The translations under genes were made by a program, and so were the position numbers. Shown in pieces: positions 11,083-47,574 of a stretch of 64,000 bases of DNA (the first letter of the stretch is position 1; every line of letters starts with the position of its first letter). The stretch spans positions 96,001 to 160,000 of the forward strand of contig CAWHCF010000044.1 of assembly GCA_963827655.1 (NCBI GenBank), given 5' to 3'. Below the pieces are notes generated by a model. That model did no database searches, was not told where the DNA came from, and was given only the letters and a program-made list of their open reading frames with translations. The stretch is from an uncultured Acidobacteriota bacterium. GTDB lineage: Bacteria; Acidobacteriota; UBA6911.

Positions 11083-11083
11083 T

Positions 11084-25266: not shown

Positions 25267-25302
25267 GTCTTCGCGCTCAACCATTTCAACGGATCAATAA
25301 TC

Positions 25303-26574
25303 ATGAGTGATGCTGTTATTCGCATGGAAGGACTGGGAAAGGTCTTCCGCATCGGCGCCCGGCACGAAGGTTACAAGACGCTGCGCGACACGCTGTCCAA
25401 TGCCTGCACTGCGCCTTTCCGCCGGATCCGCACGACGCTCCAGGGTTCGAGAATCAAGCCCTCCAGTGACGAAAACACGATCTGGGCCTTGAAAGACCTC
25501 TCGTGCGAGGTGAAGCGCGGGGAGGTGGTAGGAATCATCGGGCGCAATGGAGCGGGCAAGAGCACGTTGTTGAAAATCCTTTCTCGCATCACGGAGCCGA
25601 CCGTCGGATTTGCCGAGATTCGCGGCCGAGTGAGGTCGCTGCTCGAGGTCGGCACCGGCTTTCACCAGGAGCTGACCGGCCGGGAAAACGTCTACCTCAA
25701 TGGCGCGATCCTGGGCATGAAAAAGTCGGAGACCGACCGAAAATTCGACGAGATCGTGGCCTTCTCCGAGATAGAAAAGTTCATTGATACGCCCGTGAAG
25801 CATTACTCCAGCGGCATGTACCTGCGACTGGCTTTTGCCGTCGCCGCCCACCTGGAGCCGGAGATTCTGCTGGTGGACGAGGTCCTGGCCGTCGGCGATG
25901 CAGCGTTCCGGAACAAGTGCGTGGGGAAAATGGGAGAGGTGGCGCAGAAAGGGCGAACCGTGATCTTCGTGAGTCACAACATGGGGGTGATTCAGTCTCT
26001 TTGCAACACGGGAATCCTCCTGGAAGACGGTAAGATCACTTTTAAAGGACCGACCCAGCAGGCTGTAACGAAGTATCTCGGATCGGTCGAGCAACTGCGA
26101 ACCAAGCCGATCGAGACGCGGCAAGATCGCATTGGCGGCAATACCTTCAGGTTCAAACGCGTCCAGTTTCTCAATCCTGAAACCATGGCGCCCTGGAGGA
26201 CCCTGGTCTCGGGTCAACGCGTGATTGTCCGGCTCGAATATGAATGCTTATCCAGCCAGACCCTCGAAGATGTTGGGATCGGTATCGCATTTCATACCGC
26301 CAACAACATCCACCTCTTTGCCTGCAGGAACCGAGCCGTTGGAGTAACACTTAAGGTTCACCCGGGAGAGGGTTACACGGATTGCATCATTCCAAAGTGG
26401 CCGCTCAAAGCCGGGCGCTACTCCTACCATCTCTATGCCGACCGAAGGGATACGCCGCTGGATTACGTCACCGACGCGGGTTCTCTGGATATAGAAGCCA
26501 ACGACTACTATGGCACGGGGTATCTTCCGGCTCCGGGCCAACCCGGAGTTCTGATCGACTATGCCTGGGAATAA
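25303..26574 (+). CDS. wzt: Polysaccharide ABC transporter ATP-binding protein with C-terminal Wzt_C domain
   Basis: GRNGAGKST, YSSGM, LLVDEVLAVGD, VSH, and a C-terminal beta-rich extension (PLKAGRY). Confidence 0.95.
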   Translation: MSDAVIRMEGLGKVFRIGARHEGYKTLRDTLSNACTAPFRRIRTTLQGSRIKPSSDENTIWALKDLSCEVKRGEVVGIIGRNGAGKSTLLKILSRITEPTVGFAEIRGRVRSLLEVGTGFHQELTGRENVYLNGAILGMKKSETDRKFDEIVAFSEIEKFIDTPVKHYSSGMYLRLAFAVAAHLEPEILLVDEVLAVGDAAFRNKCVGKMGEVAQKGRTVIFVSHNMGVIQSLCNTGILLEDGKITFKGPTQQAVTKYLGSVEQLRTKPIETRQDRIGGNTFRFKRVQFLNPETMAPWRTLVSGQRVIVRLEYECLSSQTLEDVGIGIAFHTANNIHLFACRNRAVGVTLKVHPGEGYTDCIIPKWPLKAGRYSYHLYADRRDTPLDYVTDAGSLDIEANDYYGTGYLPAPGQPGVLIDYAWE

Positions 26575-26609
26575 ACACCCCCGGCCCGTTACTCAATGAG
26601 GCAATATCG

Positions 26610-27572
26610 ATGCAAGCAGGTTTGAGGAGAGGCGGTCTGAAAGTAGAAGAGCCGCTTGTCCTCCAAGAAAGAATCCAGGTGCGATCCAGCCAATTCAAGC
26701 AGGCGCGAAGCCTGGCGAAAGAGCTGCGGCCCCAGCAATGGGTCAAGAATCTCTTTGTGCTCGCTCCGCTGCTTTTCTCGCAGAACCTTTTTACGCCAGG
26801 CGCCGTCGGACGTGCTCTAACGGCCTTCGTGCTCTTTTGTCTCGCCAGCAGCTCGGTCTACTTGTTGAACGATATCAGAGACCGCGAACAGGACCGGCTG
26901 CACCCGAGAAAGCGACACCGCCCGCTTGCCAGCGGTGAACTGAGCGTGTCGCTTGCCGCAGGAGTAATGATAGCGCTCTTGCTGTCGGCTCTGGCAGGGG
27001 CGTGGATGATTAGCAAGCCGTTGGCTCTCGTGCTTTTGGGCTACTGGCTGATCAACCTCCTGTACTCCACCTGGCTCAAACACCAGGTTATTCTCGATGT
27101 CTTTGCCATTGCCTCCGGTTTCGTTCTCCGCGTGGCTGGTGGAGGCCTGGCCATTCAGGTGGAAATCAGTCATTGGTTGTTTCTCTGTACCACTCTGCTC
27201 GCCCTTTTCCTTGGCTTCAGCAAGCGGCGTCATGAACTCGGGCTTCTAAAAGCAGGGGCGCAGGCCCATCGAGAGGTGCTGGCGGACTACAATCCTGGCT
27301 TTCTCGATATGATGATCGCCATTGTGACCGCGTCCACGGTGATGAGCTACGCCCTTTACACGGTCAGCGAGGACACGGTGCGCCGCTTTCACACACACGC
27401 GCTCATGCTGACACTGCCCTTCGTGCTCTACGGCATTTTCCGTTACCTTTATCTGATCCATCATAAAAACGAGGGAGGCGATCCCACGCAAAGCTTGTTG
27501 ACGGACATCCCGATGCTCGCCAACCTTTGCCTGTGGGCGCTGACCGCGGGCGTAATTGTATACTGGCGCTGA
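26610..27572 (+). CDS. UbiA-family polyprenyl-phosphate phosphoribosyltransferase (Rv3806c/NoeC-like)
   Basis: LRPQQWVKNL, YLLNDIRDREQDRLHPRKRHRPLASG, YSTWLK, KRRHE, YGIFRYLY, DPT. Confidence 0.9.
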   Translation: MQAGLRRGGLKVEEPLVLQERIQVRSSQFKQARSLAKELRPQQWVKNLFVLAPLLFSQNLFTPGAVGRALTAFVLFCLASSSVYLLNDIRDREQDRLHPRKRHRPLASGELSVSLAAGVMIALLLSALAGAWMISKPLALVLLGYWLINLLYSTWLKHQVILDVFAIASGFVLRVAGGGLAIQVEISHWLFLCTTLLALFLGFSKRRHELGLLKAGAQAHREVLADYNPGFLDMMIAIVTASTVMSYALYTVSEDTVRRFHTHALMLTLPFVLYGIFRYLYLIHHKNEGGDPTQSLLTDIPMLANLCLWALTAGVIVYWR

Positions 27573-27611
27573 GCGTTACTCCCTTTATCGATCGCATTAC
27601 CAACATCTACT

Positions 27612-29531
27612 ATGAAGCTCGAACAAAAAAGAGTCCTGATTACCGCACTCCTGGCGCTCTCCATCGCCATCATTGGATACCTGGCTTACCGGGATATGCT
27701 GGGTTATTTCTTCACTGCCCAGGACAGCACCACGTTGATCGACACCGGCCGGGTCCGATCCTTTCGAGATGTGCTGCGTATATTCAATGAACCCTTGATG
27801 AACGGCACAACTCTCACGAAACTGTCGCTCTTTTATCGCCCCATCGCGACGCTCTCGTACAGTCTTGACTACTCCATCTGGGGATTAAACCCATTTGGCT
27901 ATCACTTGACCGATCTGATACTGCACATTCTGGTTTCTCTCTCTGTTTTCCTGGTCCTGCTCCGCTTGACCGAGGGCAAGCCGGCTGTCGCCTGGCTCGG
28001 CGCCGTCATCTTTACCGTTCACCCAATCCTGGTTGAAAGCGTCCCCGCAATTCCGCGCCGGCACGATACTATTGCAGTGCTATTCCTGCTCGTCTCTCTG
28101 TTACTTTTTATCAAGCACCTCTCCGGCCAAAAGCGCCGGCGAGTTTACCTGTTCGGCTCTCTCGTCTGTTATCTTCTGGCATTGGGCGCCAAGGAGATTG
28201 CGGTGATATTTCCCGCGCTGATTCTCGGCTATCTGGTTATCTTTTCGCCCAACCGAAAGTCAATCTTCGCCCGGATAGGTGGCGCGTTGAAATCGTCACT
28301 TCCCTTTCTGGTCGTCACACCGCTATTTCTCGGCTTTAGAGCTTATATCGTACGCGGAGTTGGAGGATATGATCCCACCCTGGTCCCATCGTCCGACAAG
28401 TTAAACTTCTTCACCGGTACGCTCACCGACTATGCGGCGGATCTGGTTTATCCGGTATCGTTCGCGGTAACCTTCTTTCAACCCTTTCCGACCTTACTGC
28501 AGAGAGTGGGCTCGCAAGTCGCGCTCCTTCTCTTCTTTGTTCTCCTTTGCCTTTACCGACGGGCGCTTTTCAAAATAATCGGTTACCCCAGACGGCAGGC
28601 GCTACGGACGGCAATGATAGGACTGGCAGGCGTTGCGGTTTTTTGCCTGATCGCAATCCTCGCCTACCCATCCCTCGCCCCTTTTGTCAACGGCGCGATC
28701 AAACGAGCTTACCAGGACCAAGGACCTGCCTTTCTGAGCGCTGCCATGACGAATCGTCATGAGGTTCCGGTCGAAGCTTACTTTTACCGGGCGGGAGAAT
28801 TACTCAGTTCCGGGTTTTCGAAGTTATTCTTTCTAGCCGCAATTTCCTTCGGCATCCTGATTGGCTTTGACAAGCGGGAAAAGATAAAGCGGTTTCTATC
28901 CGAATCTCATACCGGGATGACTTTGAGCTTCCTGGTGATCTGGCTGCTTGTTCCTCTCGGTGTCTACTTGCTAACGTTCACCTTCACTCATCGTTACATG
29001 TATCTTTCAGTGATCCCTTTCAGCGGTATTGTGGCAATCCTGATTTCCCAGTCCGTTGACTCGACCCGATCATTGATCAGAAGGGGCAACTCCAACGGTT
29101 TCTCGCTGTCGTTCGCGCTTACGGAGCCCCCCGCCTTCGCTTTCCTGATGCTCTCGACGGTGACCTTCTCGCTCCTGGCCTATTCGCCTCTGGTACGCAC
29201 GTACGGCGAGTGGAAGGACAGCGCAGCGATATCATCGACGATTCTGCACCGGTTGACTCAGGTTGTGGATGAACTTCCCAATGATGCCGTGGTTGAGGTG
29301 TTCAATCTTCCTGAGCGTATTGCTTCGTACGAGACCACGATTCCGCACGTCAAGACACCTTCATACCTGGCGGACTACAGCATCAAGTCCTGGTTAGACT
29401 TGCATCGTCCGGCTAACAGAATCACCGTTCTGGTCAGCAGTCGATCGAAGCCCGAGTCCTTTCCCCGGGGGCTAGACCTCGAAGTGAAAAAAGGGGGAAA
29501 CAAGAAGCGTAGAAGTCACTATCTCATTTGA
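27612..29531 (+). CDS. GT-C fold polytopic membrane glycosyltransferase (TMTC-like N-terminus)
   Basis: FYRPI...DYSIWGLNPFGYHL...LH, FTVHPILVESV, AKE, RYMYL, many TM helices. Confidence 0.75.
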   Translation: MKLEQKRVLITALLALSIAIIGYLAYRDMLGYFFTAQDSTTLIDTGRVRSFRDVLRIFNEPLMNGTTLTKLSLFYRPIATLSYSLDYSIWGLNPFGYHLTDLILHILVSLSVFLVLLRLTEGKPAVAWLGAVIFTVHPILVESVPAIPRRHDTIAVLFLLVSLLLFIKHLSGQKRRRVYLFGSLVCYLLALGAKEIAVIFPALILGYLVIFSPNRKSIFARIGGALKSSLPFLVVTPLFLGFRAYIVRGVGGYDPTLVPSSDKLNFFTGTLTDYAADLVYPVSFAVTFFQPFPTLLQRVGSQVALLLFFVLLCLYRRALFKIIGYPRRQALRTAMIGLAGVAVFCLIAILAYPSLAPFVNGAIKRAYQDQGPAFLSAAMTNRHEVPVEAYFYRAGELLSSGFSKLFFLAAISFGILIGFDKREKIKRFLSESHTGMTLSFLVIWLLVPLGVYLLTFTFTHRYMYLSVIPFSGIVAILISQSVDSTRSLIRRGNSNGFSLSFALTEPPAFAFLMLSTVTFSLLAYSPLVRTYGEWKDSAAISSTILHRLTQVVDELPNDAVVEVFNLPERIASYETTIPHVKTPSYLADYSIKSWLDLHRPANRITVLVSSRSKPESFPRGLDLEVKKGGNKKRRSHYLI

Positions 29532-29738: not shown

Positions 29739-30356
29739 ATGAAGGAAAACGTCGTGTGCGAAGCTAAACAACTTGCGGCTGACTATCTTCAAGCCTTCGA
29801 GAAGCTCCTGCATCGAGTGGATCTGGATGCCGTCGAAAGGATTGTCGATCTTTTGCGCGCGGCCCGTGACAGAGCGGGAACGATATATGTCGCCGGGAAT
29901 GGCGGCAGCGCCGCCACCGCTTCTCACTGGGTCAACGATCTGGGAAAAGCGACCAAATGCGAGGGCCGGAGGCCGATGCGAGTCATGAGCCTCAGCGACA
30001 ACATCTCATGGTTGACCGCGCTGGCGAACGACGAGGGGTACGAACGGGTCTTTTCAGGGCAGATGGAAAACTTTGCTCAACCTGGCGATGTTCTGATTGT
30101 GATTTCGGCAAGCGGGAATTCGCCCAATCTGCTCAGGGCCGTCGAGCTAGCCCGCGCGCGCGGCGTCGTGACCATAGGGATGCTGGGTTTCGATGGCGGT
30201 GCGTTAAAGGATCAGGTGGATGACTGCCTGTGGCTGCCGACCGAGCGGGGAGCCTATGGCCTGGTGGAGAGCGGTCATTCACTGCTTTGCCACGTCCTGA
30301 CGACCTGTCTGGTACAAGACCGGACGGAAACGAGCACACTCGAGCTAACCACGTGA
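29739..30356 (+). CDS. gmhA: Phosphoheptose (sedoheptulose-7-P) isomerase, SIS domain
   Basis: AGNGGSAA.ASH, TALAND.GY..VF, ISASGNSPN, GFDGG, VE..H. Confidence 0.9.
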   Translation: MKENVVCEAKQLAADYLQAFEKLLHRVDLDAVERIVDLLRAARDRAGTIYVAGNGGSAATASHWVNDLGKATKCEGRRPMRVMSLSDNISWLTALANDEGYERVFSGQMENFAQPGDVLIVISASGNSPNLLRAVELARARGVVTIGMLGFDGGALKDQVDDCLWLPTERGAYGLVESGHSLLCHVLTTCLVQDRTETSTLELTT

Positions 30357-31555
30357 GATCCGCGTTACAACGTCCCACTCAAGCAGTGATCCTGGCTGGC
30401 GGCCGGGGGACGCGTCTGGGCAACCTGACTGCGGCCCGACCAAAGCCTATGGTGGAAATCCACGGTAAGCCCTTCCTGTCTTACCAGATCGAACAGCTCA
30501 GGGATCAAGGCTTCAAACGTATTCTGTTATTGCTGGGGTATCTGCCCGAGGTCGTTCAAGACTACTGCGGTGACGGCAGCCGGTGGGGCGTGAAGGTCGA
30601 GTATTCTGTTTCTGCTGTCGAGGATGATACCGGACGCCGGCTCAAGCTGGCCGCACCTCATCTCGACTCACACTTCCTCTTGCTCTATTGCGACAACTAT
30701 TGGCCGATGCAAATGGAACGCATGTGGCAGAGGTTCACCGCGGCTGACGTCCCGGCCATGATAACGGTGTACAGCAACAAGGATGGTTACACCCGCAACA
30801 GCGTTCGGGTAGATGACGAAGGATATGTGGTTGCATACGATAAGACCTGCGCAAGCGCCGGCCTGGCGGGCGTAGAGATCAGCTACGCGATACTCAACCG
30901 GTCCGTTGTCGACCTGCTCCCCGAGACGAATGTGTCGCTCGAGGAGACTTTATATCCCCTGCTGGTCCAGCGCCGCGAGTTACTGGGCTATGTGACCGAC
31001 CATCGTTACTACAGCATAGGCGCGCAGCACCGGCTGCCGCTCACCGAGAGCTTCCTGGCGCGGCGGCCCGCCGTGATTCTCGATCGCGACGGCGTCTTGA
31101 ACAAGCGGCCGCCGAAGGCACAGTATGTCCGGGCATGGGGGGAATTCGAATGGCTCCCGGGTGCCAGGGAAGCGCTGCGCCTTTTTAACCAGGCTCGATA
31201 CCAGGTGATCGTGGTTTCCAATCAGGCCGGCGTCGGCCGTGGAGCCATGACCGAGTCCGACTTGCGGCAGATCCATGAGAGGATGGCGGTTGAGGTAGAG
31301 GACGCCGGGGGAAGGATTGATGCCCTCTATTACTGCCCGCACGACTGGAATTTCGGTTGTGAGTGCCGCAAGCCAAAACCGGGGCTCCTTTTTCAAGCCC
31401 AGCGCGAACTCAGTCTCGATCTGACCCGGACGCTTTTCATCGGTGACGACGAGCGCGACGCGCAAGCCGCCGCAGCCGCGGGCTGTCCTTCGGCGCTGGT
31501 ATCACCCGAGGAATCTTTAATCGACATTACACGCAAGGTGATAAGCAATGCATGA
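30353..31555 (+). CDS. gmhB: Fused heptose-1-phosphate guanylyltransferase (HddC-like) / heptose-1,7-bisphosphate phosphatase (GmhB)
   Basis: N-terminal ILAGGRGTRL..PKPM. C-terminal DRDGVLN, VSNQAG, YYCPH..CECRKPKPG, IGD. Confidence 0.88.
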   Translation: MRSALQRPTQAVILAGGRGTRLGNLTAARPKPMVEIHGKPFLSYQIEQLRDQGFKRILLLLGYLPEVVQDYCGDGSRWGVKVEYSVSAVEDDTGRRLKLAAPHLDSHFLLLYCDNYWPMQMERMWQRFTAADVPAMITVYSNKDGYTRNSVRVDDEGYVVAYDKTCASAGLAGVEISYAILNRSVVDLLPETNVSLEETLYPLLVQRRELLGYVTDHRYYSIGAQHRLPLTESFLARRPAVILDRDGVLNKRPPKAQYVRAWGEFEWLPGAREALRLFNQARYQVIVVSNQAGVGRGAMTESDLRQIHERMAVEVEDAGGRIDALYYCPHDWNFGCECRKPKPGLLFQAQRELSLDLTRTLFIGDDERDAQAAAAAGCPSALVSPEESLIDITRKVISNA

Positions 31556-31559
31556 CAAC

Positions 31560-32627
31560 ATGAAAACTGAAACTCCGATCAAGCGTCTTCTGGTGACAGG
31601 GCACAACGGATACGTCGGCTCAGTCATGGCGCCGCACTTGCTGCAGTCGGGATACGAGGTAGTCGGCCTGGATACGGGCTATTTCGGGCAGTGCACGTTC
31701 GTGCCCGACGTAGCGAACATCCCGGTGGTGCGTAAAGACATTCGAGAACTGGAGTCCTCAGACCTGGAAGGATTCGACGCCGTGGTTCATCTGGCGGCTC
31801 TGAGCAACGACCCGATCGGCAATCTCGACGCCGGCTGGACGGATGACATTAATTTTCGAGCTTCCGTGCGCCTGGCTCAACTCGCCAGGGCGGCGGGGGT
31901 GCGACGCTTCCTGTTTTCTTCCTCGTGCATCATGTACGGTATGGCGGATGCGTCGACCGTGACCGAGGATTCTCCGCTTGCGCCGCAGACCGAGTACGCA
32001 CGTTCCAAGGTCAAGAGCGAGCGAGCCCTCAGCGAACTGGCACAGGAAGGGTTTTCGCCTGTTTTTCTGCGCAACGGCACTATCTATGGCGTATCGCCTC
32101 GAATGCGCTTCGACACGGTTTTCAATGACCTCGTGGGATCGGCGGTGACCACAGGTAAGGTCGTGGTATACAGCGACGGCAAGCCCTGGCGGCCGGTGCT
32201 GCACGTCGCGGATGTCGCGCGCGCCTTCGAAGCGGTCCTCAAAGCGCCCACCGCGGCGGTCCACAACCAGGCATTTAACGTCGGCGCCAATCATCTAAAT
32301 CATCAGATTATTGAGCTGGCCGAGATTGCCGTCGCGACCGTGCCCGGCTGCCGGCTGGAGGTATTGGCTCAGCCCGGCGCCGATCAGCGCACCTATAAAA
32401 CCGACTTCGGCAAGTTTGCCAGGGTGATTCCCGGTTTTGAGTTCCAATGGACCGCGCGAACCGGGGCTCAACAGCTCTACGACGCATTCAAGACAGCCGG
32501 GCTGGTACGCGACACTTTCGTTGACAAGCGGTTCACACGGCTGAAGTGGTTGCGCCATCTGTTGGACACGGGACAGCTCGACGCCAATCTGCGATGGAAA
32601 AACGGCGCACGAGGAGAGCAGCAATGA
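31560..32627 (+). CDS. NAD-dependent nucleotide-sugar oxidoreductase, probable GDP-heptose C4-dehydrogenase (Cj1427-like)
   Basis: LVTGHNGYVG, YARSK, YGVSPRMRFD...ND, DQRTY. Sits inside the heptose cassette. Confidence 0.8.
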   Translation: MKTETPIKRLLVTGHNGYVGSVMAPHLLQSGYEVVGLDTGYFGQCTFVPDVANIPVVRKDIRELESSDLEGFDAVVHLAALSNDPIGNLDAGWTDDINFRASVRLAQLARAAGVRRFLFSSSCIMYGMADASTVTEDSPLAPQTEYARSKVKSERALSELAQEGFSPVFLRNGTIYGVSPRMRFDTVFNDLVGSAVTTGKVVVYSDGKPWRPVLHVADVARAFEAVLKAPTAAVHNQAFNVGANHLNHQIIELAEIAVATVPGCRLEVLAQPGADQRTYKTDFGKFARVIPGFEFQWTARTGAQQLYDAFKTAGLVRDTFVDKRFTRLKWLRHLLDTGQLDANLRWKNGARGEQQ

Positions 32628-33073
32628 TTGATGGAGTGAAGATCGTTCCTTTGCGGCAGATCGTCGACGAACGTGGGAAGATCATGCATATGCTGAAGGC
32701 GACCGACCCTCATTTCCTCGGCTTTGGCGAAATCTATTTCTCGTGCGCGTGGCCGGGTACGATCAAGGCCTGGCATATCCATCAGACGATGACGGTAAAT
32801 AACGCCGTTCTTTCCGGCCGAGCCAAGCTGGTGATGTATGACCTGCGCAAGAATTCGGCTACGCAGGGCAAACTTCAGGAGGTCTTCCTGGGCGAGGATA
32901 ACTACTGCCTGGTCCAGATTCCCCCGGGTATTGCCAACGGATACAAAGCCTATGGAGACAAGATGGTGATCCTGGCCAACTGCGGCACCGAGGCGCACGA
33001 TCCCAAAGAGATGCTGCGGCTCGATCCCTTTACCCCGGAAATACCGTATGATTGGGCGGTCAAACATGGCTAA
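32624..33073 (+). CDS. RmlC-like cupin NDP-4-keto-sugar 3,5-epimerase
   Basis: MIDGV...DERG, KAWHIH, YDLR..S.T.G, IPPGIANG. Confidence 0.88.
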   Translation: MIDGVKIVPLRQIVDERGKIMHMLKATDPHFLGFGEIYFSCAWPGTIKAWHIHQTMTVNNAVLSGRAKLVMYDLRKNSATQGKLQEVFLGEDNYCLVQIPPGIANGYKAYGDKMVILANCGTEAHDPKEMLRLDPFTPEIPYDWAVKHG

Positions 33074-34083
33074 GAGCCCAAGATTCTCGACTCCCAGACT
33101 GGTGGTTTCCAGCACACCCTTGCGAGTGAGCTTCGCGGGCGGCGGAACCGACCTGGCAGCGTTCTACGAACACGAGCGCGGTGCGGTGTTCAGCACTGCC
33201 ATCAACAAATACATCTACGTGACCGTGAAGCGGCACGGAGAGGTATTCAACGAGCGCATTCGTCTGAACTACTCCAGGAGCGAGCAGGTTCAGGGTGTCG
33301 ACGAGATCGAGAACAACATTGCGCGCGAGTGCCTGAGGTTCCTTCAAGTCGAACCGCCCCTCTACATCAGCACGGTCGGGGATCTGCCGGCCTCGACAGG
33401 ATTGGGCGGGTCCAGCAGTTTTGCGGTCGGCTTGCTGAACGCGCTGCATGCCTTTCGCGGCGAACGTGTGTCCGCCGGACAGCTTGCCGAGGAAGCCTCC
33501 TACATCGAGATTGACGTACTCAAGGAGCCTATCGGCAAACAAGATCAGTATGCGGCGGCCTTCGGCGGCTTGAACCTGTTCTGTTTCAAACCCGAACGGC
33601 GCCGTGACCGTCGAGCCGCACCGGCTGAACAATGGCGCGCTGGCCGCCCTGTTTGAGCAGATGATGATGTTCTGGACCGGGCACCAGAGGGATTCGAGCT
33701 CGGTCCTGGCGGAACAGAGAGCGAATACCGCTCAAAAGATGGACTCGCTGAGAATGCTGCGCGATCACGCCTACCACCTGCAGGGAATTCTGAGCAACGG
33801 CCATAGCAATTTGCAGGCGCTAGGGCAGATTCTCGACCAGGGTTGGGAGCTGAAACGCGGTCTGGCAAGTACGATTACAACTAACCAAATTGATAACTGG
33901 TACCGTCTGGCGCGTGAGGCGGGCGCCCTCGGAGGAAAGCTTTGCGGCGCGGGCGGCGGAGGCTTCCTGCTCTTCGTCGTGCCTGAGGAGGCTCAGGACA
34001 CCGTACGCAAGGCGTTGACTACCCTGAAGGAAGTGCCTGTGGGTCCTGCGGCGCACGGGTCTCAAATTCTGTTCGTGGAATAA
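33066..34083 (+). CDS. hddA: D-glycero-D-manno-heptose-7-phosphate kinase, GHMP family (frameshift near 33597)
   Basis: TPLRVSFAGGGTD, P..TGLGGSS, GKQDQYAAAFGG, GGKLCGAGGGGF. Confidence 0.9.
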
Positions 34084-34088
34084 TACAA

Positions 34089-35369
34089 ATGGGAGATAAC
34101 GGTAAATTGAACTCGACAAAGAATGAATCCGTGCGTTGTATCGTGTGCGGTTTGCAGACGGTGGAGCGGTTCCTGCACCTCGGCGATACGGCGCTCGCCA
34201 ACAAGTTTCTGACCAGGGACGAACTGACCATCCCGGAGCCGACCTTTCCGCTGACGGTTGGCTTCTGCCATACCTGCGGCCATGTGCAGCTAACCGAAAG
34301 AGTGCCTCCGGTCGCCATGTTTCAGGACTATCTCTACGTATCCTCAGCTTCCGATACACTCAAGGATCATTTGTATGATTTGAGTGACACGCTCGTACAA
34401 CGATATTCCCTCGGCGCTGATGATCTGGTCATCGATATCGGATGCAATGACGGCACTCTCTTGAGCGGGTTTGCGCGTCATGGCGTGAAGACCCTGGGTG
34501 TGGATCCTGCCGAGAACCTGGCCGCCCTGGCGGGTAGTCGGGGAACCGAACGCTATGTCGGGTTCTTTACCTCAGCCTCGTCCGAGGAAATAATCCGGAG
34601 GTGGGGTCAGGCCTCGCTTATTACCGCGACCAATACTTTCCCCCACATCCCGGAGTTGCGTGATTTTGTCGCCGGAATCAAGAAGGTGCTCGAACCAGGG
34701 GGCGTGTTTGTCATCGAAGCACATTACCTGGTCGACATGCTGGAACAAGCCGCCTTTGATACCATCTATCACGAGCACGTTTCTTACTGGGCGTTAGGTC
34801 CGATGGTCCACCTCTTCGCTCAAGAAGGCATGGAAATCGTCAATGTCGAACGCCTGCCCCTCCATCATGGCCAGTTGCGGGTTGCGGTCCAGCGCAAAGG
34901 AGAGGGACGCGTGCAGCGAAGCGTCGTCGAATTGCTCGCATTGGAGCGGGAGCTAGGGATCGATCGGTTTGAAACCTACCAGCGCTTTGCCGAGCAAACC
35001 CAACAGCTCAAGCGCGATTTGCACTATACCCTGAGGGAACTGCGACGCCAGGGAAAACGAGTCGCCGGTTACGGAGCGCCGGCGAAGGGCAACACACTGC
35101 TGAGCTTTCTGGAGCTCGGTCCCGATACGGTCAACTACATCGCTGATCGCAGTCTGCTGAAACAAGGGCGCTATACGCCCGGTTCACACATTCCGGTCGT
35201 GCCTCCCGATCGACTGTTAGCCGACCAGCCTGATTACGTCTTGCTGCTCGCCTGGAACTTTACCGACGAAGTGCTGGGGCAGCAGGCGGAGTACCGAAAA
35301 CGGGGCGGCAAGTTCATCGTCCCGGTTCCGAACGTCAAGATAATAGAGCCTGCGCCATCCAGGAATTGA
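34089..35369 (+). CDS. NDP-sugar C-methyltransferase (Zn-binding, TcaB9/NovU-like)
   Basis: CIVCG...CHTCGHVQL Zn motif, DIGCNDG, FDTIYHEH, HHGQLR, YGAPAKGNT, LLAWNF. Confidence 0.9.
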   Translation: MGDNGKLNSTKNESVRCIVCGLQTVERFLHLGDTALANKFLTRDELTIPEPTFPLTVGFCHTCGHVQLTERVPPVAMFQDYLYVSSASDTLKDHLYDLSDTLVQRYSLGADDLVIDIGCNDGTLLSGFARHGVKTLGVDPAENLAALAGSRGTERYVGFFTSASSEEIIRRWGQASLITATNTFPHIPELRDFVAGIKKVLEPGGVFVIEAHYLVDMLEQAAFDTIYHEHVSYWALGPMVHLFAQEGMEIVNVERLPLHHGQLRVAVQRKGEGRVQRSVVELLALERELGIDRFETYQRFAEQTQQLKRDLHYTLRELRRQGKRVAGYGAPAKGNTLLSFLELGPDTVNYIADRSLLKQGRYTPGSHIPVVPPDRLLADQPDYVLLLAWNFTDEVLGQQAEYRKRGGKFIVPVPNVKIIEPAPSRN

Positions 35370-35398
35370 ACCTCGCAGTCCCATGAAGGTAGTGGGGC

Positions 35399-36280
35399 AT
35401 GGACCGAAAAAATCCGGCAAGTTGGGCTGTGGCCGCCGTCGCCTGGCGTCTTCATCACGTCAGGCGACTGACTAAATCGTACTTGCTGAAAAGGTGCAAG
35501 TCATACTTCGAGCGCCAGGGCTACGGGACTTACCTGGTGGCCAAGAAAGATTGCCTGGCTGCTTTGACCGTGAAAGAAGCGCAATACTACACTCAGTGGT
35601 GCGCCCCCTGCCCCCTCTTTACCCCATGGGCAGGGCATCCGGACTTTCAGAAGGTATATGAAGGTATCGAGCCTCACACGCTGGTTTCTCCCGAGCGATG
35701 CTACATGCTGGTGAGTCTGGCCCGTCACAGTCTGCATCTCGCCGGGGATTTTGCCGAATGCGGAGTTTATAGAGGCGGGACGGCGCTCTTGCTTTCTCGT
35801 GTTCTTGACGACGATCGGTTCGTAACCAGTCAGGCTAAGACCTTGTATCTGTTCGATAGTTTCGAGGGGTTACCCCGTAAAAACGGAAGTCACGATAATG
35901 TATACGGCGAAGGAACCTTCGCGATCGACTCGGTAGAATCGGTGAAGAGTCTCTTGAGCAGTTTCCGAAATTTTACCGACTTTCGCAAGGGTTGGATTCC
36001 CGATACTTTCCAGGGACTTGATGACAGGCGTTACGCCTTTGCCCACATCGATGTGGACCTCTATCAGTCTGCTCTGGATTGCTGCCGGTATTTTTATCCG
36101 CGCCTGGTCCCCGGTGGAGTGCTGGTCTTCGACGACTATGGATTCCCGGCGGCCCGTGGCGAAAAAGATGCTGTCGACGAGTTTTTTGCCGACAAGCCGG
36201 AATCTCCCATAACGCTCCTGACCGGACAATCCCTCGTCATAAAACTACCCGGATCAGCGGAACTAATCGCCGGAAAATGA
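35399..36280 (+). CDS. TylF/MycF/NovP-family sugar O-methyltransferase
   Basis: GDFAECGVYRGG, FDSFEGLP, KGWIPDT, HIDVDLY, VFDDYG. Confidence 0.92.
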   Translation: MDRKNPASWAVAAVAWRLHHVRRLTKSYLLKRCKSYFERQGYGTYLVAKKDCLAALTVKEAQYYTQWCAPCPLFTPWAGHPDFQKVYEGIEPHTLVSPERCYMLVSLARHSLHLAGDFAECGVYRGGTALLLSRVLDDDRFVTSQAKTLYLFDSFEGLPRKNGSHDNVYGEGTFAIDSVESVKSLLSSFRNFTDFRKGWIPDTFQGLDDRRYAFAHIDVDLYQSALDCCRYFYPRLVPGGVLVFDDYGFPAARGEKDAVDEFFADKPESPITLLTGQSLVIKLPGSAELIAGK

Positions 36281-37616
36281 ATTCAGCCGATTTAACCACC
36301 GGTCTCAATTTGGTTGACGCCGGGACAGAGATGTACGCCCTGGTTTCGGAGTTATATCCCATTTGCCGAAGCATCACGGGCGGCGGAGTGCGAGAGACCC
36401 TTCGTATCCTTCAAAGCCGGATTCCGCTCACAATCCATGAGATCCCCAGCGGCACACCCGTATTCGACTGGAATATTCCCAGAGAGTGGAACATCAGAGA
36501 TGCCTGCGTAAAGAATGCGCAAGGGGAGCGAGTCATAGATTTCAGGAAATCCAACCTGCACGTGGTCAGCTACAGCGTGCCGGTCAGAACCAGGATTCCG
36601 CTTGACGAGTTGAAAGAGCATCTGTTTACGCTCCCCGATCACCCGGACTGGATTCCGTATCGAACTTCATACTATGCGGAAAACTGGGGATTCTGCCTGA
36701 GCCACAATGAATTGATGCGGTTGAAGGATGGCGAATACGAGGTACTGGATCGATGCGTCTCTGGAAAAAGGTCACCTTACCTACGGCGAATACTATCTCG
36801 CAGGAGAGAGCGCCGAAGAGGTCCTGATATCCTGTCATGTCTGCCATCCGTCGCTGTGCAACGATAACCTTTCCGGCATTGCCCTGGCGGTGTCTCTGGC
36901 GCAGCGACTGGGGCAGGTCAAGCGCAGATATTCCTATCGATTTCTTTTTACCCCCGGAACCATCGGTTCCATAACCTGGCTCTCCTTGAACGAAGCGCAG
37001 CTTTCCCGAATCAAACACGGGCTGGTTTTAGCTTGTGTCGGGCGACTCGGGCAAGTTTACCTACAAAAAAACTCGCCGCGGCAATGCAGAGATTGACCGG
37101 GCCGTCGCCTATGTCTTCCAGCATGCGGGCAACGACTACGAGATCCTGAATTTTTCCCCCTACGGCTATGACGAGCGCCAGTTCTGCTCGCCGGCGTTCA
37201 ATCTTCCGGTTGGATGTTTTATGCGAACGCCGCACGGCCGCTTCCCGGAGTATCACACGTCCGCCGACAATCTTGATCTGGTGCGCCCTCAAAACCTTTC
37301 GGACTCGTTCGCCCGGTGTTTATCGGTTCTGCAGATCCTGGAGGAGAACAAGGCTTACCTGAACCAGAATCCAAAGTGCGAGCCGCAACTGGGCAAGCGA
37401 GGGCTCTATCGAACCATGGGAGGGGAAACCGATGGAAAAAGTCGTGAACTGGCAATGTTGTGGCTTTTGAATCTATCGGACGGCAGCCATACTTTGTTGG
37501 ACATCGCGGAGGAATCCGGGCTGGAGTTCGGTCTTATCAGTAGCGCCCGAGACGCGCTGGTGCAACACGGCCTGTTGAAGGAGCGTCCCGAAGAAGCGCA
37601 GCCGACCTGCAGGTAG
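36277..37616 (+). CDS. DUF4910/DUF2172 aminopeptidase-like glycan-modification protein with C-terminal winged helix (frameshifts near 36745 and 37040)
   Basis: LYPICRSITG.GVR, DWNIP.EWNI, IPYRTSYY..NWGFC, HVCHPS.CNDN.SG, GYDERQF.SP, EYHTSAD, EPQLGKRGLY. Confidence 0.9.
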
Positions 37617-37644
37617 CCAACGACAACCGGTCACACTTTCAATC

Positions 37645-38367
37645 ATGGCAGACTTCACCAATCAGATAGCGGTTGTAACGGGCGCCAGCAGCGGCGTCGG
37701 CAGGGCCATTGCCCTTGCCCTCGCCGAGCAGGGGGCTACCGTCTGCCTTGTGGGGCGCAAGCTGGAAGCGCTTCAATCGGTTTCAGGCAGCGCCGGTTCC
37801 TCTCGCTTTTTCAGTTATCAGGCCGATCTCACGAACGACGAGGAAATCCATGAACTGGCGGCGCGCCTGCAGCGAGACGTCGGCTTTATCGACCTGCTGG
37901 TTCACAGCGCGGGCGTTATCGCGTTGGGACCGATCGAAGAGGCTCCGGTCGAAGACTTCGATCGCCAGTACCGCACTAATGTGCGCGGCCCTTACGTCCT
38001 TACCCAGGCACTGCTGCCTATGTTCCGCGGATCTCGAGGCGAGGTTGTATTTGTCAATTCCAGTATCGGTCTGAGCGCCAGAGCCGGCACGGGACAGTAC
38101 GCGGCAACCAAGCTCGCGCTCAAGGCCATCGCGGACAGCCTGCGCGCGGAAGTAAACGCGGATGGGCGGCGGGTACTCAGCGTATTTCTTGGACGAACCG
38201 CGACTCCGATGCAGCAGACTATTCACGATCGGGAAGGCCGGGACTATCATCCGGAGCTGCTGCTTCAGCCGGAAGACGTGGCCGCCGTGGTGTTGAACGC
38301 CGTCAGCTTGCCGCGGACCGCCGAAGTTACCGACATTAATATCAGGCCGATGATCAAGACGGCCTAG
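37645..38367 (+). CDS. Short-chain dehydrogenase/reductase
   Basis: VTGASSGVG, HSAG, NSS, YAATK. Confidence 0.92.
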   Translation: MADFTNQIAVVTGASSGVGRAIALALAEQGATVCLVGRKLEALQSVSGSAGSSRFFSYQADLTNDEEIHELAARLQRDVGFIDLLVHSAGVIALGPIEEAPVEDFDRQYRTNVRGPYVLTQALLPMFRGSRGEVVFVNSSIGLSARAGTGQYAATKLALKAIADSLRAEVNADGRRVLSVFLGRTATPMQQTIHDREGRDYHPELLLQPEDVAAVVLNAVSLPRTAEVTDINIRPMIKTA

Positions 38368-38435
38368 GGAAGCGCCCTCCATACTGTGAGACATTAGCCG
38401 AAGGCGGCAACCTGTCGCGCATTTGAGAGGAAATC

Positions 38436-39895
38436 ATGGATACTTCATTCTTGAAGTTGCTGCGCTGCCCTTTTTGTGCGGGGACTCTGAGCGCAAGCGG
38501 GCCTGAACCGGTTTCACCCGAACCGGAATACGGTGTGCTGAGCTGCTATTGCGGCCGGTACCCCATCGTGGCCGGCATTCCCGTTCTCAAAAAGGGAAAC
38601 ATCGGCAGCGCCGGACAAAGCAGCGAAGAGGTCATCGCCTTGATTGAGAATGGCCGGCGAGTCCGAGGCGCTGTTTTCTCTTTTGACACCGCCCGGCTTG
38701 CCGCCGTCGCCGTCCTGGATCCGTTCCTTGCCTTCGGTCACGGGAATCAATCGGGTCAAGAGCCTCGCGTCGGAGCGGTCGGCGCGCCAGTGGCAAGAGC
38801 AGGCGGCCCCGCTCCTGGCAGATGAAGAAGCGACGGCCTGTAACCTCCTGGATCTCTATTTCAGCAGGAATAAGAACAAGCTTGTCCGCGACTATTTCGC
38901 CTTCCGTTTCGGCAACGGGCGCTATCTGGTGGGCCTGTCTTTTGCTGCCAGCCTGGCAACCAGCCCGATCGAGCCCTGTTGGATTTGGCTTGCGGATGCG
39001 GCCACCTGACCAGCGGCCTGGTGCAGCAAGCGGAAGGCCGGCCCGGTGGTGGGAATGGACGATTCCTTTTTCGGACTCTATGTGGCCAAGCGTTGGACTG
39101 CGCCTCAGGCAGAATATGTCTGTTGCGCGGCCGATGGGTCCCTCCCTTTCCCGGATGGCGCCTTTTCGGCCGCATTCTGCTCCGATGCCTTTCACTATTT
39201 CTCTGCCAAGGCAACGAGCGCTCGGGAACTGAAACGCCTGACGCGGGACCACGGGATCATCGTCTTGTTCTGGGTGCGCAACGGGCTCTTGGAACATCCC
39301 TACGCCGGCTTGCCGCTGCCGCCGGCGGGTTATCAGGCTTTGGTCGCCGACATGCCCCACCGCCTGGTCGCGGACTCTGAAGTCCTGGCCGGTACCTGCG
39401 AAAGCAAGGCCCGCCGCTGGCTCGCTCCGCCGAGATCGAGAGTCTGGCCCAGTGAGCCCGTGCTCTCGATCGTGGCGTCGCATCGGCAAGAAGCACTCGT
39501 CGATTATGGTACCTTCGAGGATTGGCCGCACGCTCGAGGGCGCCTGGACTTGAACCCTCTGTATGTGAAAGAACCCAGGAACGGCGACGGAAGTGTGTCT
39601 TTGCGCCGTCGCTTTCCTTCCCCGCTCTACGAACAGCTGAACGAGGAGTGCAAGTCGTACCTGCCGGCATCCGTGGATGTGAACGAAACGATATGGACCG
39701 ATCTCGCGAACGGGAAAGCAAACTCAAGAGATCGAAACGTTGGTAGAGCAGTGCGTCTTGCTGGCTATCCCTGAGCGCTATGGGAATCCCAATGCCTCTC
39801 GTCTTCAAAGCATGGCGAGTGTCATCGGTTATCCTATGCTGTATTCGCTTGGTATCGAACTGTGTGAGAGCTTTGTTTGGGACGTACCCATATAA
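38436..39895 (+). CDS. Class I methyltransferase with Trm112-like N-terminal Zn ribbon (several frameshifts)
   Basis: LLRCPFC...CYCGRYPIVAGIPVL, LDLACGCGH, LPFPDGAF, DAFHY. Confidence 0.75.
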
Positions 39896-39931
39896 GCCAG
39901 CGGACACAAGGTTGTCCGGGAGATTGAGTCA

Positions 39932-40980
39932 ATGACCCTCGAAAAACAATTTCTGTTTATCATAGGCGCCCCGAGAAGCGGAACTACGTGGCTGCAGGCC
40001 ATGGTGGGCGCGCATCCTTCAATCTGTACCACGGACGAGCTTAAAATCTTTGATTTTTTCACCGGTCCGTGGGGAAAGTCCTGGCAACAGCTCCTCAAGT
40101 TGCAAAAAGACGGCCGAGGGGCCCGGCGACATGGTTTGACTGGTGTCTGGTCGGAAGATGAATTCCGTGATTTCTTGAGGGAGTTTCTGGAGCGCGTATA
40201 TGCCCGTGTTCTGCAGAAGAAACCGGAGGCAACCGTCATCCTCGACAAGACTCCTGGATACTCTGACTACGTGGAGCACATCAACTGGCTCATCCCTCAG
40301 GCTAAGTTCATTCACCTGATCCGCGACGGACGGGATGTTGTTGTATCACTCCAGGCGGCGTCCCAGGGCTGGGGAAAAATGTGGGCACCCAAGAAAACCG
40401 AATCGGCCGCGCCCTTGTGGAAGTCAACGCTCCTGGCAGCCCGAAAGGGTCAGCAGTACGGGGATCGGTATCTGGAGGTGCGGTACGAGGATCTCTTGAC
40501 CAACGGCGCCCAGATACTCTCCTCGATATTCGAGTTTGTCGGCGTACCAATGAAGCCTGTGGATGCGGCCGCGATTTTTCAAGAGCATCAGTTCCAGAAG
40601 ATGAAAAAAGAACGGAGCCGGCGTTCAAAACTTTGGATTGCCGGAGGGCTTCTTCCGTAAAGGTCAGGCCGGAGACTGGCAAAATTCGCTGAAACCCAAC
40701 CAGCGTTATTCCATCCATGATACGGCGGGCGATCTGTTGTGCGAACTCGGGATATGCCCGCGATTCATGGTGGGTCGAGCGTTGGCACCAGCGTTTTACG
40801 CTGCCCTTGCTCGCCATGCTCCATAGCCGGAAGCGGATGCGGTTAAAGACCTTGTATGCAATCAAGCGCGCTCTGGGTCCGGTCTGGATCGAACGGATCC
40901 GGACCGCGCGGACGCGGGTGAGACCGCGCCAGATGGGTAGTGAACAGTACAAAGCGGGAGGGCGCGCAGCAACGCCGTAG
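39932..40980 (+). CDS. PAPS-dependent sulfotransferase (frameshifted near 40620 and 40755)
   Basis: FIIGAPRSGTTWL (5'PSB), DKTP, IRDGRDVVVS (3'PB), VRYEDL, FFRKGQAGDW. Confidence 0.92.
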
Positions 40981-40988
40981 AGGACGGA

Positions 40989-41859
40989 TTGACCAAGTTA
41001 AGTATCATCATCCCCTGCTTCAATGCATCCGAGGCTATCGCAGCGCAACTCGAAGCCCTGGCCGGACAAGAATGGTCCGAGTCCTGGGAGGTCATTGTCG
41101 CGGATAACGGTTCAACCGATCAGTCACTCGCAATAGTCGAGCGCTATCGCGAGACTTTTACCGAATCTCCGTGTTGTCGATGCATCCGGCCGACGGGGCG
41201 CCGCTCACGCGCGCAACGAGGGGGCAAAGGTGGCTGAAGGAGAGTCGATCGCTTTCTGCGACGCGGACGATGTGGTGGCTCCGGGGTGGTTGGCCGCCAT
41301 AGGCGAGGCCCTTTCCAGGTACGATTTCGTCGCCAGCCGTTTTGATACTGAGAAGCTGAATGACCCCTGGGTCCAGGCAAGTCAGGCAAACCCGCAACAA
41401 GATGGGGTGCAAAAGGCCTGGTATCCTCCCTATCTGGCGCATTCGGGCGCGAGCGGTCTCGCAGTCAAAAGGGGATTCCATGAAGCTGTCGGCGGCTTCG
41501 ATGAAACCTTGCCCGTATTGGAAGATACCGACTATTGCTTCAGAGTCCAGCTGGCCGGGCCCGAGCTTCATTTCGTACCCGAAGCCACGGTGTACGTCCG
41601 GTACCGTAACGAATTAGGGAACATGTTCCGCCAGGCGCGCCTGTGGGCCGAGTACAACGTCCTGATGTACAAAAAATACCGGCCGTCGGGGATAAGAATG
41701 GCACATCCCTGGAAGCGATATATGAAGGCCTGGAAGATTTTTCTCCTCTGTCACCTCAAGATTCATCGGCGGGGGGGGCGTGCTGAATGGGTGTGGCGTC
41801 TTGGATGGCAACTGGGCCGGTCGCAGGGTAGCTTGAAATACCGGGTCCATCCAATCTGA
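40989..41859 (+). CDS. Glycosyltransferase family 2 (frameshift near 41158)
   Basis: SIIIPCFNA, ADNGSTD, ARNEG, FCDADD, GGFDE...EDTD. Confidence 0.9.
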
Positions 41860-41870
41860 CCGGCCTAGAT

Positions 41871-41906
41871 TCTTAGTGTTTCTTCGTGCTTTCGTGTCTT
41901 AGTGGT
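41871..41906 (-). repeat. Short intergenic repeat family (CACTAAGACACGAAG-like)
   Basis: Reverse complement reads ACCACTAAGACACGAAAGCACGAAGAAACACTAAGA. Related to 51020-51042 and to the arms at 47448-47501. Confidence 0.55.
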
Positions 41907-41914
41907 ATTTGTTG

Positions 41915-42725: not shown

Positions 42726-42786
42726 ATACGCAGTGTCAGGCCATGGAACTAGACAATCCGGCCTGGCTTAAAAGGAGACAATACGG

Positions 42787-43735: not shown

Positions 43736-43753
43736 GCAGGACAGAGGCTCCGT

Positions 43754-45527: not shown

Positions 45528-45657
45528 CATCCTCCCACCTTCGTGGTCAGGAACCTTGTCGAAAAAAAACCGAAAGTACAGATTCAGTGAAACAACTCCT
45601 GCTCTCTTATATCTTTGTTGATGCTCAGAAACCTATTCCTCTTGGAGTGTGACATAA

Positions 45658-47427
<1,770 letters not shown>

Positions 47428-47447
47428 AATCAGGGACGTGATTTCGA

Positions 47448-47501
47448 GTCTTTGCGCCTTTGTGGTGGCTTTTGTTTCCCATACCGCAAAGGCGCGAAGA
47501 C
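47448..47501. repeat. 19-bp inverted repeat hairpin (REP-like, possible terminator or mRNA stabiliser)
   Basis: GTCTTTGCGCCTTTGTGGT...ACCGCAAAGGCGCGAAGAC, with two G-U-compatible mismatches, just after the sat stop. Confidence 0.7.
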
Positions 47502-47574
47502 ATGAGAGAGTTCTCCCGGCCCCTCCCCGTTTTAGGAACTTCCGATAAGATCGTCGAATTGTCATAATACTGCT

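Follow-up and report, generated by a model that had tools for sequence, protein, structure and literature searches.

A conserved operon that couples heptose activation to a sugar C-methyltransferase suggests a possible route to a branched heptose in soil bacteria

Introduction

Can the synthesis of an activated heptose be coupled to the C-methylation of a sugar? The question is raised by an operon of an uncultured Acidobacteriota bacterium, at positions 29739-38367 on the + strand of a stretch of 64,000 nucleotides that we have analysed as a whole and refer to as the window. In this operon the genes for activation of a heptose are found together with a gene for a sugar C-methyltransferase of the TcaB9/TylC3 type. 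Most of what is known to us of the tailoring of heptoses comes from Campylobacter, in which it ends with oxidation, epimerisation, dehydration, reduction and O-methylation. The characterised C-methyltransferases of the TcaB9 family known to us all act on deoxythymidine diphosphate (dTDP)-deoxyhexoses of antibiotics. A preliminary description of the locus had proposed a C-methyl-branched, O-methylated heptose as the product. We find that the heptose genes and the C-methyltransferase are coupled in a conserved manner, and that the cassette is common to bacteria of several phyla. We assign a probability of about 0.6 to a pathway in which a nucleoside diphosphate (NDP)-heptose, probably linked to guanosine diphosphate (GDP), is oxidised at C4 and gains a carbon-bound methyl group at C3, after which epimerisation and reduction would give a product for a glycan exported by a Wzm/Wzt transporter.

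Results

Organisation of the operon

All nine genes are on the + strand, and a map of open reading frames (ORFs) together with Pfam matches bears out the list and the coordinates of the preliminary description. The first, at 29739-30356, encodes a GmhA-like SIS protein (sedoheptulose-7-phosphate isomerase; SIS_2, 74.6 bits), and is followed at 30353-31555 by a fusion of NTP_transferase and HAD domains that are HddC-like and GmhB-like (heptose-1,7-bisphosphate phosphatase), respectively. SDR1, an extended, GalE-like short-chain dehydrogenase/reductase (SDR) that we propose to be an NDP-heptose C4-dehydrogenase, is encoded at 31548-32627 (Epimerase, 156 bits). Next comes an RmlC-superfamily cupin at 32624-33073 (dTDP_sugar_isom, PF00908, 52.9 bits), the proposed C5 and/or C3 epimerase of a 4-keto sugar. 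The split gene hddA at 33066-34083 encodes an HddA-like GHMP kinase (heptose-7-phosphate 1-kinase), with GHMP_kinases_N and GHMP_kinases_C in two ORFs. The gene of the C-methyltransferase at 34089-35369 is intact (PF08421 69.9 bits, Methyltransf_23 57.9 bits, PF08484 192.9 bits), and is followed at 35399-36280 by that of a TylF-family methyltransferase (TylF, 91.2 bits). A second split gene, at 36277-37616, encodes a metallopeptidase-like DUF2172/DUF4910/HTH_47 protein of the CA_C2195 family, termed here the DUF4910 protein, with its Pfam matches over three ORFs. The last gene, at 37645-38367, encodes SDR2, a classical SDR and candidate 4-ketoreductase (adh_short, 148 bits).

The genes are tightly coupled, as had been described. 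Five junctions overlap: three by GTGA or ATGA at the stop and start codons (gmhA/fusion, where the GTG start codon of the fusion overlaps the gmhA stop, SDR1/cupin and TylF/DUF4910) and two by 8 bases (fusion/SDR1 and cupin/hddA). The remaining junctions are gaps of 5-29 bases. The genes of SDR1 and the cupin are interleaved with those of the heptose enzymes, lying between the fusion and hddA and hence inside the activation set. Two features had been overlooked, namely three frameshifts and the accessory nature of the pair encoding DUF4910 and SDR2.

The C-methyltransferase

The C-methyltransferase has all three domains expected from Pfam, an N-terminal zinc domain (PF08421), a class I methyltransferase domain and the C-terminal PF08484. 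It matches solved structures over its full length: MtmC 4rv9 (2.6e-95), 5t64 (1.5e-92) and TcaB9 3ndi (2.8e-85). In the alignment with MtmC the zinc cysteines C17, C20, C60 and C63 and the stretch FDTIYHEH are identical. The roles of the four cysteines, and of Y-H-E-H in the active site, we take to be those established in work on TcaB9. As far as is known, the substrates of the characterised members are dTDP-4-keto-2,6- or 6-deoxyhexoses. In the loci surveyed below a candidate for a keto-forming SDR always adjoins the C-methyltransferase.

Enzymes of heptose activation

Four functions are encoded together in the operon, an isomerase, a GHMP kinase, a HAD phosphatase and a nucleotidyltransferase (Pfam SIS_2, GHMP_kinases_N/_C, HAD and NTP_transferase). 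This set of four is the signature of the heptose-1-phosphate route. Our assignment to heptose uses the top-ranking matches, not the curated cut-offs of the NCBIfam equivalog models. For the GmhA-like protein the top model is TIGR00441 gmhA (104.5 bits, cut-off 209). The genome carries a second, more canonical gmhA elsewhere, on contig C23 (205.4 bits), and because of this we regard the gmhA of the cassette as a dedicated copy. The phosphatase part of the fusion matches GmhB (PRK08942, 162.9 bits, cut-off 178), and the two leading models for its nucleotidyltransferase part are the Rv-type mannose-1-phosphate guanylyltransferase (96.8 bits, cut-off 440) and HddC (75.2 bits, cut-off 300). Among structures in the PDB the top four matches to the fusion are GmhB proteins, i.e. 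heptose-1,7-bisphosphate phosphatases (4pnh, 3.2e-29), and the best nucleotidyltransferase matches are 6jq8/5xhw, named '6-deoxy-D-mannoheptose pathway protein' (3e-16). HddA is the top NCBIfam model for each half of hddA (69 and 67.5 bits, about 136 together, cut-off 600), and the intact HddA orthologue of locus L095 scores 170.8 bits on the same model over positions 2-314 of 338. From these matches our best guess is that the nucleotide is most likely GDP. Elsewhere in the genome a further HddA-like kinase is encoded on contig C14 (17903-18883, 114 bits), and a second sugar-nucleotide cluster at 71981-79548 of contig C49 contains ManC-like, GalU-like and GHMP kinase-like genes with an SDR whose top NCBIfam match is LegB.

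SDR1, the cupin and SDR2

SDR1 was aligned with six homologues. The residues S125-S126-C127...Y150-x-x-S153-K154 are invariant in all seven sequences; the residue after the catalytic serine is Cys, Ile or Ser, and in none of the seven is it Asp or Glu. In 4,6-dehydratases the catalytic serine is followed by Asp or Glu. SDR1 is judged not to be a 4,6-dehydratase, since these acid/base residues are missing, and it looks like a non-dehydrating, keto-forming enzyme. It matches the structure 6vo6 (1.3e-25) over residues 12-317, i.e. its full length, with the common motif SPRMR(F/L)D..ND. The nearest solved structure to the cupin is the uncharacterised 3ejk (5.8e-30), true RmlC proteins matching at 1e-9 or weaker; the cupin is 78-88% identical in loci L091, L092, L095, L012 and L180-L188. 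SDR2 lies just below the cut-off of NCBIfam PRK08219 (217.8 bits against 218).

Conservation of the linkage

How widely is hddA joined to the C-methyltransferase? The preliminary description had proposed a survey of their co-occurrence, and this shows a conserved linkage. We examined 160 loci, 80 from species-representative genomes and 80 from metagenomes, by tblastn with the proteins of the window. The hddA gene is directly upstream of the C-methyltransferase gene in L011, L012, L013 and L091-L095. By their record titles the first three are metagenome-assembled genomes of Nitrospiraceae, Alphaproteobacteria and Chloroflexota, with C-methyltransferases 73, 56 and 48% identical to that of the window, respectively; the identity is 63-73% in L091-L095. 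L095 has the full order gmhA, fusion, SDR1, cupin, hddA, C-methyltransferase, DUF4910 and SDR2, followed by a Wzt gene. Two loci (L101, 67%, and L107, 63%) are truncated within the methyltransferase and are not scorable for hddA. The gene was not found in the 658 bases upstream in L096 (50% identity) or in the 10 kb upstream in L097 (49%). Within the phylum of the window, 69 of 401 sampled genomes have a homologue of the C-methyltransferase at E 1e-60 or better. The nine best matches in this sample (L180-L188, 62-64% identity, all of one genus) have cupin-hddA upstream, an arrangement seen in none of the 20 other loci fetched from it. In all, 17 other loci have hddA directly upstream, comprising every one of the 16 homologues at least 56% identical for which upstream DNA could be examined, plus one at 48%.

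The hddA-linked enzymes form a lineage of their own. A tree of 162 C-methyltransferases was made with FastTree after discarding rows that matched over fewer than 330 residues or were not on the + strand. The nine hddA-linked rows known at that stage, from the window and eight other loci, are one clade with an SH-like support of 100. The hddA label changes once on this tree against a mean of 8.8 when shuffled, and none of 500 shuffles was as low. We also looked for the enzyme in 40 close relatives of the bacterium. None has a C-methyltransferase above 39% identity; the cassette is not vertically conserved in its family. It is common in soil metagenomes, where the best 120 protein clusters are all at least 68% identical, and near-identical DNA is present in 20 metagenome runs from 16 studies.

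Two variants of the arrangement were observed. At 23-1647 of L198, at the start of the contig, a GmhA-like SIS gene (41% identical) is directly upstream of a 43% identical C-methyltransferase, and this may be another heptose-linked version outside the main clade. In L012 (9070-13411) the surroundings of the C-methyltransferase include two additional extended SDRs along with a DegT-type aminotransferase, which replace DUF4910 and SDR2; this alphaproteobacterial version may make an amino, C-methyl variant of the heptose.

The TylF gene and the DUF4910/SDR2 module

A tblastn search of the 17 other hddA-linked loci gave no match to TylF. A contig of the metagenome run X2 joins position 35437 directly to 36173, an in-frame loss of 735 bases (35438-36172) that takes away most of the gene. 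Near-identical populations thus differ in having the TylF-type O-methyltransferase, and the gene is a local insertion between those of the C-methyltransferase and the DUF4910 protein. Parts of 35476-36119 in the TylF gene are uncovered in runs X2, X3 and X4, which is by itself uninformative.

DUF4910 and SDR2 follow the C-methyltransferase in L091, L093, L095 and L101, with SDR2 51-63% identical in L091, L093 and L095. They do not follow it in L092, L094, L012 and L013, nor within the 1.5 kb examined for L180-L188. The pair is an accessory module. In about a dozen loci DUF4910 also has a more distant C-methyltransferase nearby. The L095 protein of 442 amino acids contains all three domains (DUF4910, 356.9 bits), and in the window DUF2172, DUF4910 and HTH_47 are all found, spread over the three split ORFs.

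Integrity of the window's copy

Two ORFs of the window, 33048-33656 and 33604-34083, together make up the broken hddA, and the broken DUF4910 gene is spread over three, at 36079-36867, 36728-37096 and 37035-37616. The DUF4910 pieces still match Pfam models at 74, 157 and 144 bits, and the three frameshifts are the only breaks seen. The stretch 32900-37700 was aligned with contigs from soil or rhizosphere metagenomes, taken from four runs (X1-X4) of four studies. Relative to the window, a single base is missing from the contigs of X1, X2 and X3 at 33591 in hddA and at 36745 in the DUF4910 gene, and from those of X2 and X3 at 37040 or 37043 in the latter. The X4 contigs show none of the three deletions; their listed pieces end at 33592, and neither of the other two sites is spanned by them. 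When the extra bases are removed computationally, single frames of 338 (hddA) and 445 (DUF4910) amino acids result. The intact orthologues in L095 are likewise single frames, of 338 and 442 amino acids.

The breaks are most likely assembly errors, because independent soil-metagenome contigs were observed without exactly these three single bases. At 90% completeness the assembly totals 8.18 Mb, in 53 contigs; 8 Mb in just 53 contigs, with many split genes, would fit an error-prone long-read assembly. More split genes occur downstream, at 38400-49500: an AsnB-like gene (43754-44494 and 44205-45527), a carbamoyltransferase gene (47575-48729 and 48512-49426), methyltransferase fragments (39046-39774 and 43080-43685) and a GT2 fragment (41230-41859). 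Further single-base errors like those in the cassette are the probable cause.

Hexose-type loci and the hexose nucleotides of the genome

Homologous C-methyltransferases also occur in cassettes of a hexose type, at 8167-15210 of L085, 8088-14723 of L082 and 8107-14492 of L048. These contain a true glucose-1-phosphate cytidylyltransferase (TIGR02623, 359-365 bits, cut-off 300), and the order is the cytidylyltransferase, an SDR1-like gene, the C-methyltransferase, one or two paralogues lacking the zinc domain, and a GT2 gene. The SDR1 homologues, at 47-54% identity, sit in this way between RfbF and the C-methyltransferase. An SDR1-like gene adjoins the C-methyltransferase in about ten further loci. 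In L085 and L082 it encodes the only oxidoreductase among the ORFs scanned beside the C-methyltransferase, and because of this the SDR1-like enzyme is a likely source of the keto group for the methyltransferase. The organisation of the three cassettes suggests that they would make branched non-deoxy hexoses from cytidine diphosphate (CDP)-glucose without a 4,6-dehydratase.

The window contains no hexose nucleotidyltransferase, as had been claimed: the single match to PF00483 is the fusion itself, and the sole other nucleotidyltransferase seen is of the CMP-sugar type (13495-14223). The genome, which is 90% complete, has eight NTP_transferase genes. Of the seven outside the window, two are GlgC, two GalU-like, one GlmU and two ManC-like (below cut-off), and neither RmlA nor RfbF is among them. 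Nor does any 4,6-dehydratase in this genome exceed its cut-off, whether for dTDP-glucose (174.9 bits against 365), GDP-mannose (58.8 against 415) or CDP-glucose (67.7 against 278). GDP-mannose is probably present, judging from the gene content. The SDR at 16700-17815 was considered as Gmd, which could have supplied a keto sugar of the hexose type, and rejected: it matches Pfam GDP_Man_Dehyd, yet scores 33 bits on gmd and 141 against 365 on the dTDP-glucose dehydratase model.

The surrounding polysaccharide array

The remainder of the window is a single + strand polysaccharide array that includes Wzm/Wzt export genes (24525-26574), a NeuB/CMP-sugar module, sulfation genes, carbamoyltransferases and glycosyltransferases. 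The nonulosonic-acid module at 10709-14223 encodes a NeuB with an N-terminal extension of ~175 amino acids, a UDP-N-acetylglucosamine (UDP-GlcNAc) 2-epimerase and a CMP-sugar transferase. Two genes adjoin the cassette on its upstream side, at 26382-29531: one encodes a UbiA-family protein, which passes the cut-off of the decaprenyl-phosphate phosphoribosyltransferase model NF008977 (321 bits against 234), and the other, which follows it, a protein of 639 amino acids that looks membrane-like from its sequence and has no family match. The pair suggests a possible route to a lipid-linked pentofuranose donor, similar to that of mycobacteria, in a soil bacterium. The glycan of the array is probably sulfated, because a sulfotransferase (39932-40660) and a fused ATP sulfurylase/adenosine 5′-phosphosulfate (APS) kinase (45658-47427) are encoded within it. 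An SxtJ-like gene at 49447-49842 comes after a carbamoyltransferase gene.

Discussion

The proposed pathway

The gene content, order and coupling, the conserved linkage and the family assignments lead us to the following scheme, in which all of the chemistry, the nucleotide, the methylated position and the stereochemistry are inferred from sequence. The GmhA-like, HddA-like, GmhB-like and HddC-like enzymes would convert sedoheptulose-7-phosphate into NDP-D-glycero-D-manno-heptose, which SDR1 would oxidise at C4 without dehydration. The TcaB9/TylC3-type enzyme, with S-adenosylmethionine, would then methylate C3 of the 4-keto sugar. The small cupin is proposed to epimerise the methylated keto sugar, likely at C5 because C3 is quaternary after methylation, and the keto group would be reduced by SDR2, or by SDR1 with its own reduced nicotinamide adenine dinucleotide (NADH). 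O-methylation by the TylF-type enzyme may follow in this strain. The resulting 3-C-methyl-heptose would be built into the glycan of the Wzm/Wzt transporter encoded upstream. A more general proposal, which we hold tentatively and at somewhat less than even odds, is that the dedicated clade of C-methyltransferases makes an NDP-3-C-methyl-heptose, an eight-carbon branched sugar, in soil Acidobacteriota, Nitrospirota, Alphaproteobacteria and Chloroflexota, and that SDR1 defines a wider family of NDP-sugar C4-dehydrogenases. Such a family would supply non-deoxy 4-keto sugars from CDP-glucose or NDP-heptose, possibly taking the hydride back.

The C-methylated heptose of the preliminary description gains from the conserved linkage, from the apparently non-dehydrating character of SDR1 and from a genome, 90% complete, in which we found no dTDP- or CDP-hexose route. 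Its O-methylation fares less well, TylF being missing from 17 of 17 other hddA-linked loci and skipped by one near-identical contig. The assignment to GDP-heptose holds insofar as the top matches are heptose enzymes; all are under the NCBIfam equivalog cut-offs.

A number of observations weigh against the scheme. With every heptose enzyme below its curated cut-off, the activated sugar could differ from D-glycero-D-manno-heptose. The nucleotide could be CDP, since homologues of SDR1 and the C-methyltransferase pair with a CDP-glucose enzyme in other loci; for the same reason the pair is not intrinsically bound to heptose or to GDP. The two ManC-like genes would make GDP-mannose available as an alternative substrate. 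PelX, a UDP-GlcNAc C4-epimerase (6wjb), matches SDR1 as well as does 6vo6, over a shorter stretch (residues 12-248), and 6vo6 itself is a structure that we take to be the GDP-heptose C4-dehydrogenase Cj1427. The cupin is a member of the superfamily only, scoring 34.1 bits on the NCBIfam rmlC model TIGR01221 (cut-off 155.75). The related loci are not independent, nine being kin from one genus. Lastly, hddA and the DUF4910 gene are broken in the assembly as given, and the contigs with intact frames are only 90-99% alike to the window and may be from other strains.

Alternative explanations

Polysaccharide loci commonly combine the pathways of several sugars, and two might be present in this operon: a plain NDP-heptose would be made for the glycan while the substrate of SDR1, the C-methyltransferase, the cupin and SDR2 would be a hexose nucleotide from another source. 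The product could then be a 3-C-methyl-hexose derived from, for example, GDP-mannose, for which the genome has its two ManC-like genes, similar to the 3-C-methyl-mannose of some Helicobacter pylori strains; PMC4205683 describes 3-C-methyl-D-mannose in H. pylori O-chains. The association of an SDR1-like enzyme with the C-methyltransferase beside a glucose-1-phosphate cytidylyltransferase, with no heptose genes, in L085, L048 and L082, and the approximately ten further adjacencies, show that these two enzymes can operate in another setting. Yet the hddA-linked C-methyltransferases are a clade of their own, and in 17 other loci, belonging to several phyla, hddA is their immediate upstream neighbour; such strict adjacency is not expected from mere co-residence. 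Moreover the genes of SDR1 and the cupin are enclosed by those for heptose activation, with start and stop codons that overlap, and the window is without a hexose nucleotidyltransferase. We consider two separate pathways unlikely. It is more improbable still that the sugar activated by the SIS, GHMP-kinase, HAD and nucleotidyltransferase enzymes, and then C-methylated, is a different one, for instance another that derives from a ketose phosphate. The wide margins by which the four enzymes fall under the equivalog cut-offs would allow this, as would the greater divergence of the cassette gmhA (104.7 bits) compared with the second copy (205.4 bits) and the extra HddA-like gene on C14 (114 bits). 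The top-scoring family for each part is still a heptose enzyme, however, with GmhB providing the top four structural matches and a heptose-pathway protein the best match to the nucleotidyltransferase, and the four-function set is generally known as the signature of the heptose-1-phosphate route.

The remaining alternatives concern the methyltransferase and the state of this copy. The fold of the enzyme at 34089-35369 serves diverse methylations, and in L085, L082 and L048 two to three paralogues without the zinc domain come after the C-methyltransferase, but it is scarcely credible that oxygen or nitrogen is methylated here in place of carbon, given the complete three-domain architecture, the matches to solved structures of three sugar 3-C-methyltransferases (E 1e-85 to 1e-95), the retained zinc cysteines and YHEH stretch, and the constant presence alongside of a candidate keto-forming SDR. 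It is also very unlikely that the copy is dead, with hddA and the DUF4910 gene being true pseudogenes in this strain like other split genes of the window. There are indeed three frameshifts within 8.6 kb, and other broken genes (AsnB-like, 43754-45527; carbamoyltransferase, 47575-49426), and the contigs with intact frames differ in sequence from the window. Each break, however, is one extra base that is missing from the contigs of two or three runs from different studies, the split pieces keep strong Pfam matches with no break beyond the three frameshifts, and the profile of the assembly (8 Mb, 53 contigs and many split genes) would be that expected of error-prone long reads. We thus retain the coupled synthesis of a C-methylated heptose as the preferred explanation.

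Implications

If this is correct, a C-methylated heptose would be a new class of monosaccharide in bacterial glycans, and the substrate range of the TcaB9 family would be extended to seven-carbon, non-deoxy sugars. The pairing of SDR1 and the C-methyltransferase beside CDP-glucose enzymes further suggests a general, undescribed route to branched non-deoxy sugars that dispenses with a 4,6-dehydratase. Since the cassette is common in soil metagenomes, its product may be a frequent surface epitope among uncultured soil bacteria. The proposal is directly testable, because the enzymes are small and soluble and their substrates are known.

Comparison with known systems

No C-methyl heptose was found by searches of full-text literature that did not include most subscription journals. 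The closest topics are virenose, 3-C-methyl-mannose and 3-C-methyl-rhamnose, with no C-methyl heptose among them in the text available. The window enzyme shares with the NDP-hexose 3-C-methyltransferases TcaB9, TylC3, MtmC and KijD1 the same three domains, zinc site and active-site stretch, but its partner genes would make a heptose, without a 4,6-dehydratase, and it belongs to a separate clade.

The DUF4910 protein has the same three-domain architecture as the CA_C2195 family, which the available part of Das et al. 2014 (PMC4000134) describes as peptidase-like without the peptidase residues, and as associated with sugar-modification operons in ten bacterial clades, including nitrospirae. Compared with that description, the window gene, and those of about a dozen loci, adjoin a C-methyltransferase, and several also adjoin a classical SDR.

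A dedicated, second set of heptose-activation genes and a TylC3-like C-methyltransferase have been described within one surface-glycan region of Coxiella burnetii, resembling in this the window. According to PMC5843353 and PMC3539893, its O-antigen region includes a phosphoheptose isomerase (CBU0674), SDRs (CBU0676/0677), a heptose kinase/nucleotidyltransferase (CBU0678) and a TylCIII-like protein (CBU0691), and its glycan holds the C-branched sugars virenose and dihydrohydroxystreptose. Unlike the window, these Coxiella genes are more than ten genes apart by locus tag, the kinase/nucleotidyltransferase is HldE-like (ADP type), and in the in-silico model virenose is made from hexose nucleotides (PMC5843353, PMC3539893).

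The nearest parallel to the chemistry is in the capsular heptose pathways of Campylobacter jejuni, which oxidise C4, epimerise and reduce. According to the accessible text of PMC10680097, Cj1427 has NADH firmly bound to it, which is recycled by α-ketoglutarate in a ping-pong mechanism; the terms 'C-methyl' and 'methyltransferase' are absent from that text. With these pathways (Cj1427, the C3/C5-epimerase Cj1430 and the C4-reductase Cj1428) the window shares the four activation functions, a non-dehydrating extended SDR, an RmlC-superfamily cupin and a further candidate reductase. It differs in that its enzymes are distant, under the equivalog cut-offs, and that the candidate reductase is a classical and not an extended SDR. 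It differs too in having a TcaB9-type C-methyltransferase in the route, a fused nucleotidyltransferase/phosphatase and a DUF4910 protein alongside. What is new is the joining of a C-methyltransferase to a heptose pathway, from parts that belong to known families and with a logic that mirrors the heptose routes of Campylobacter.

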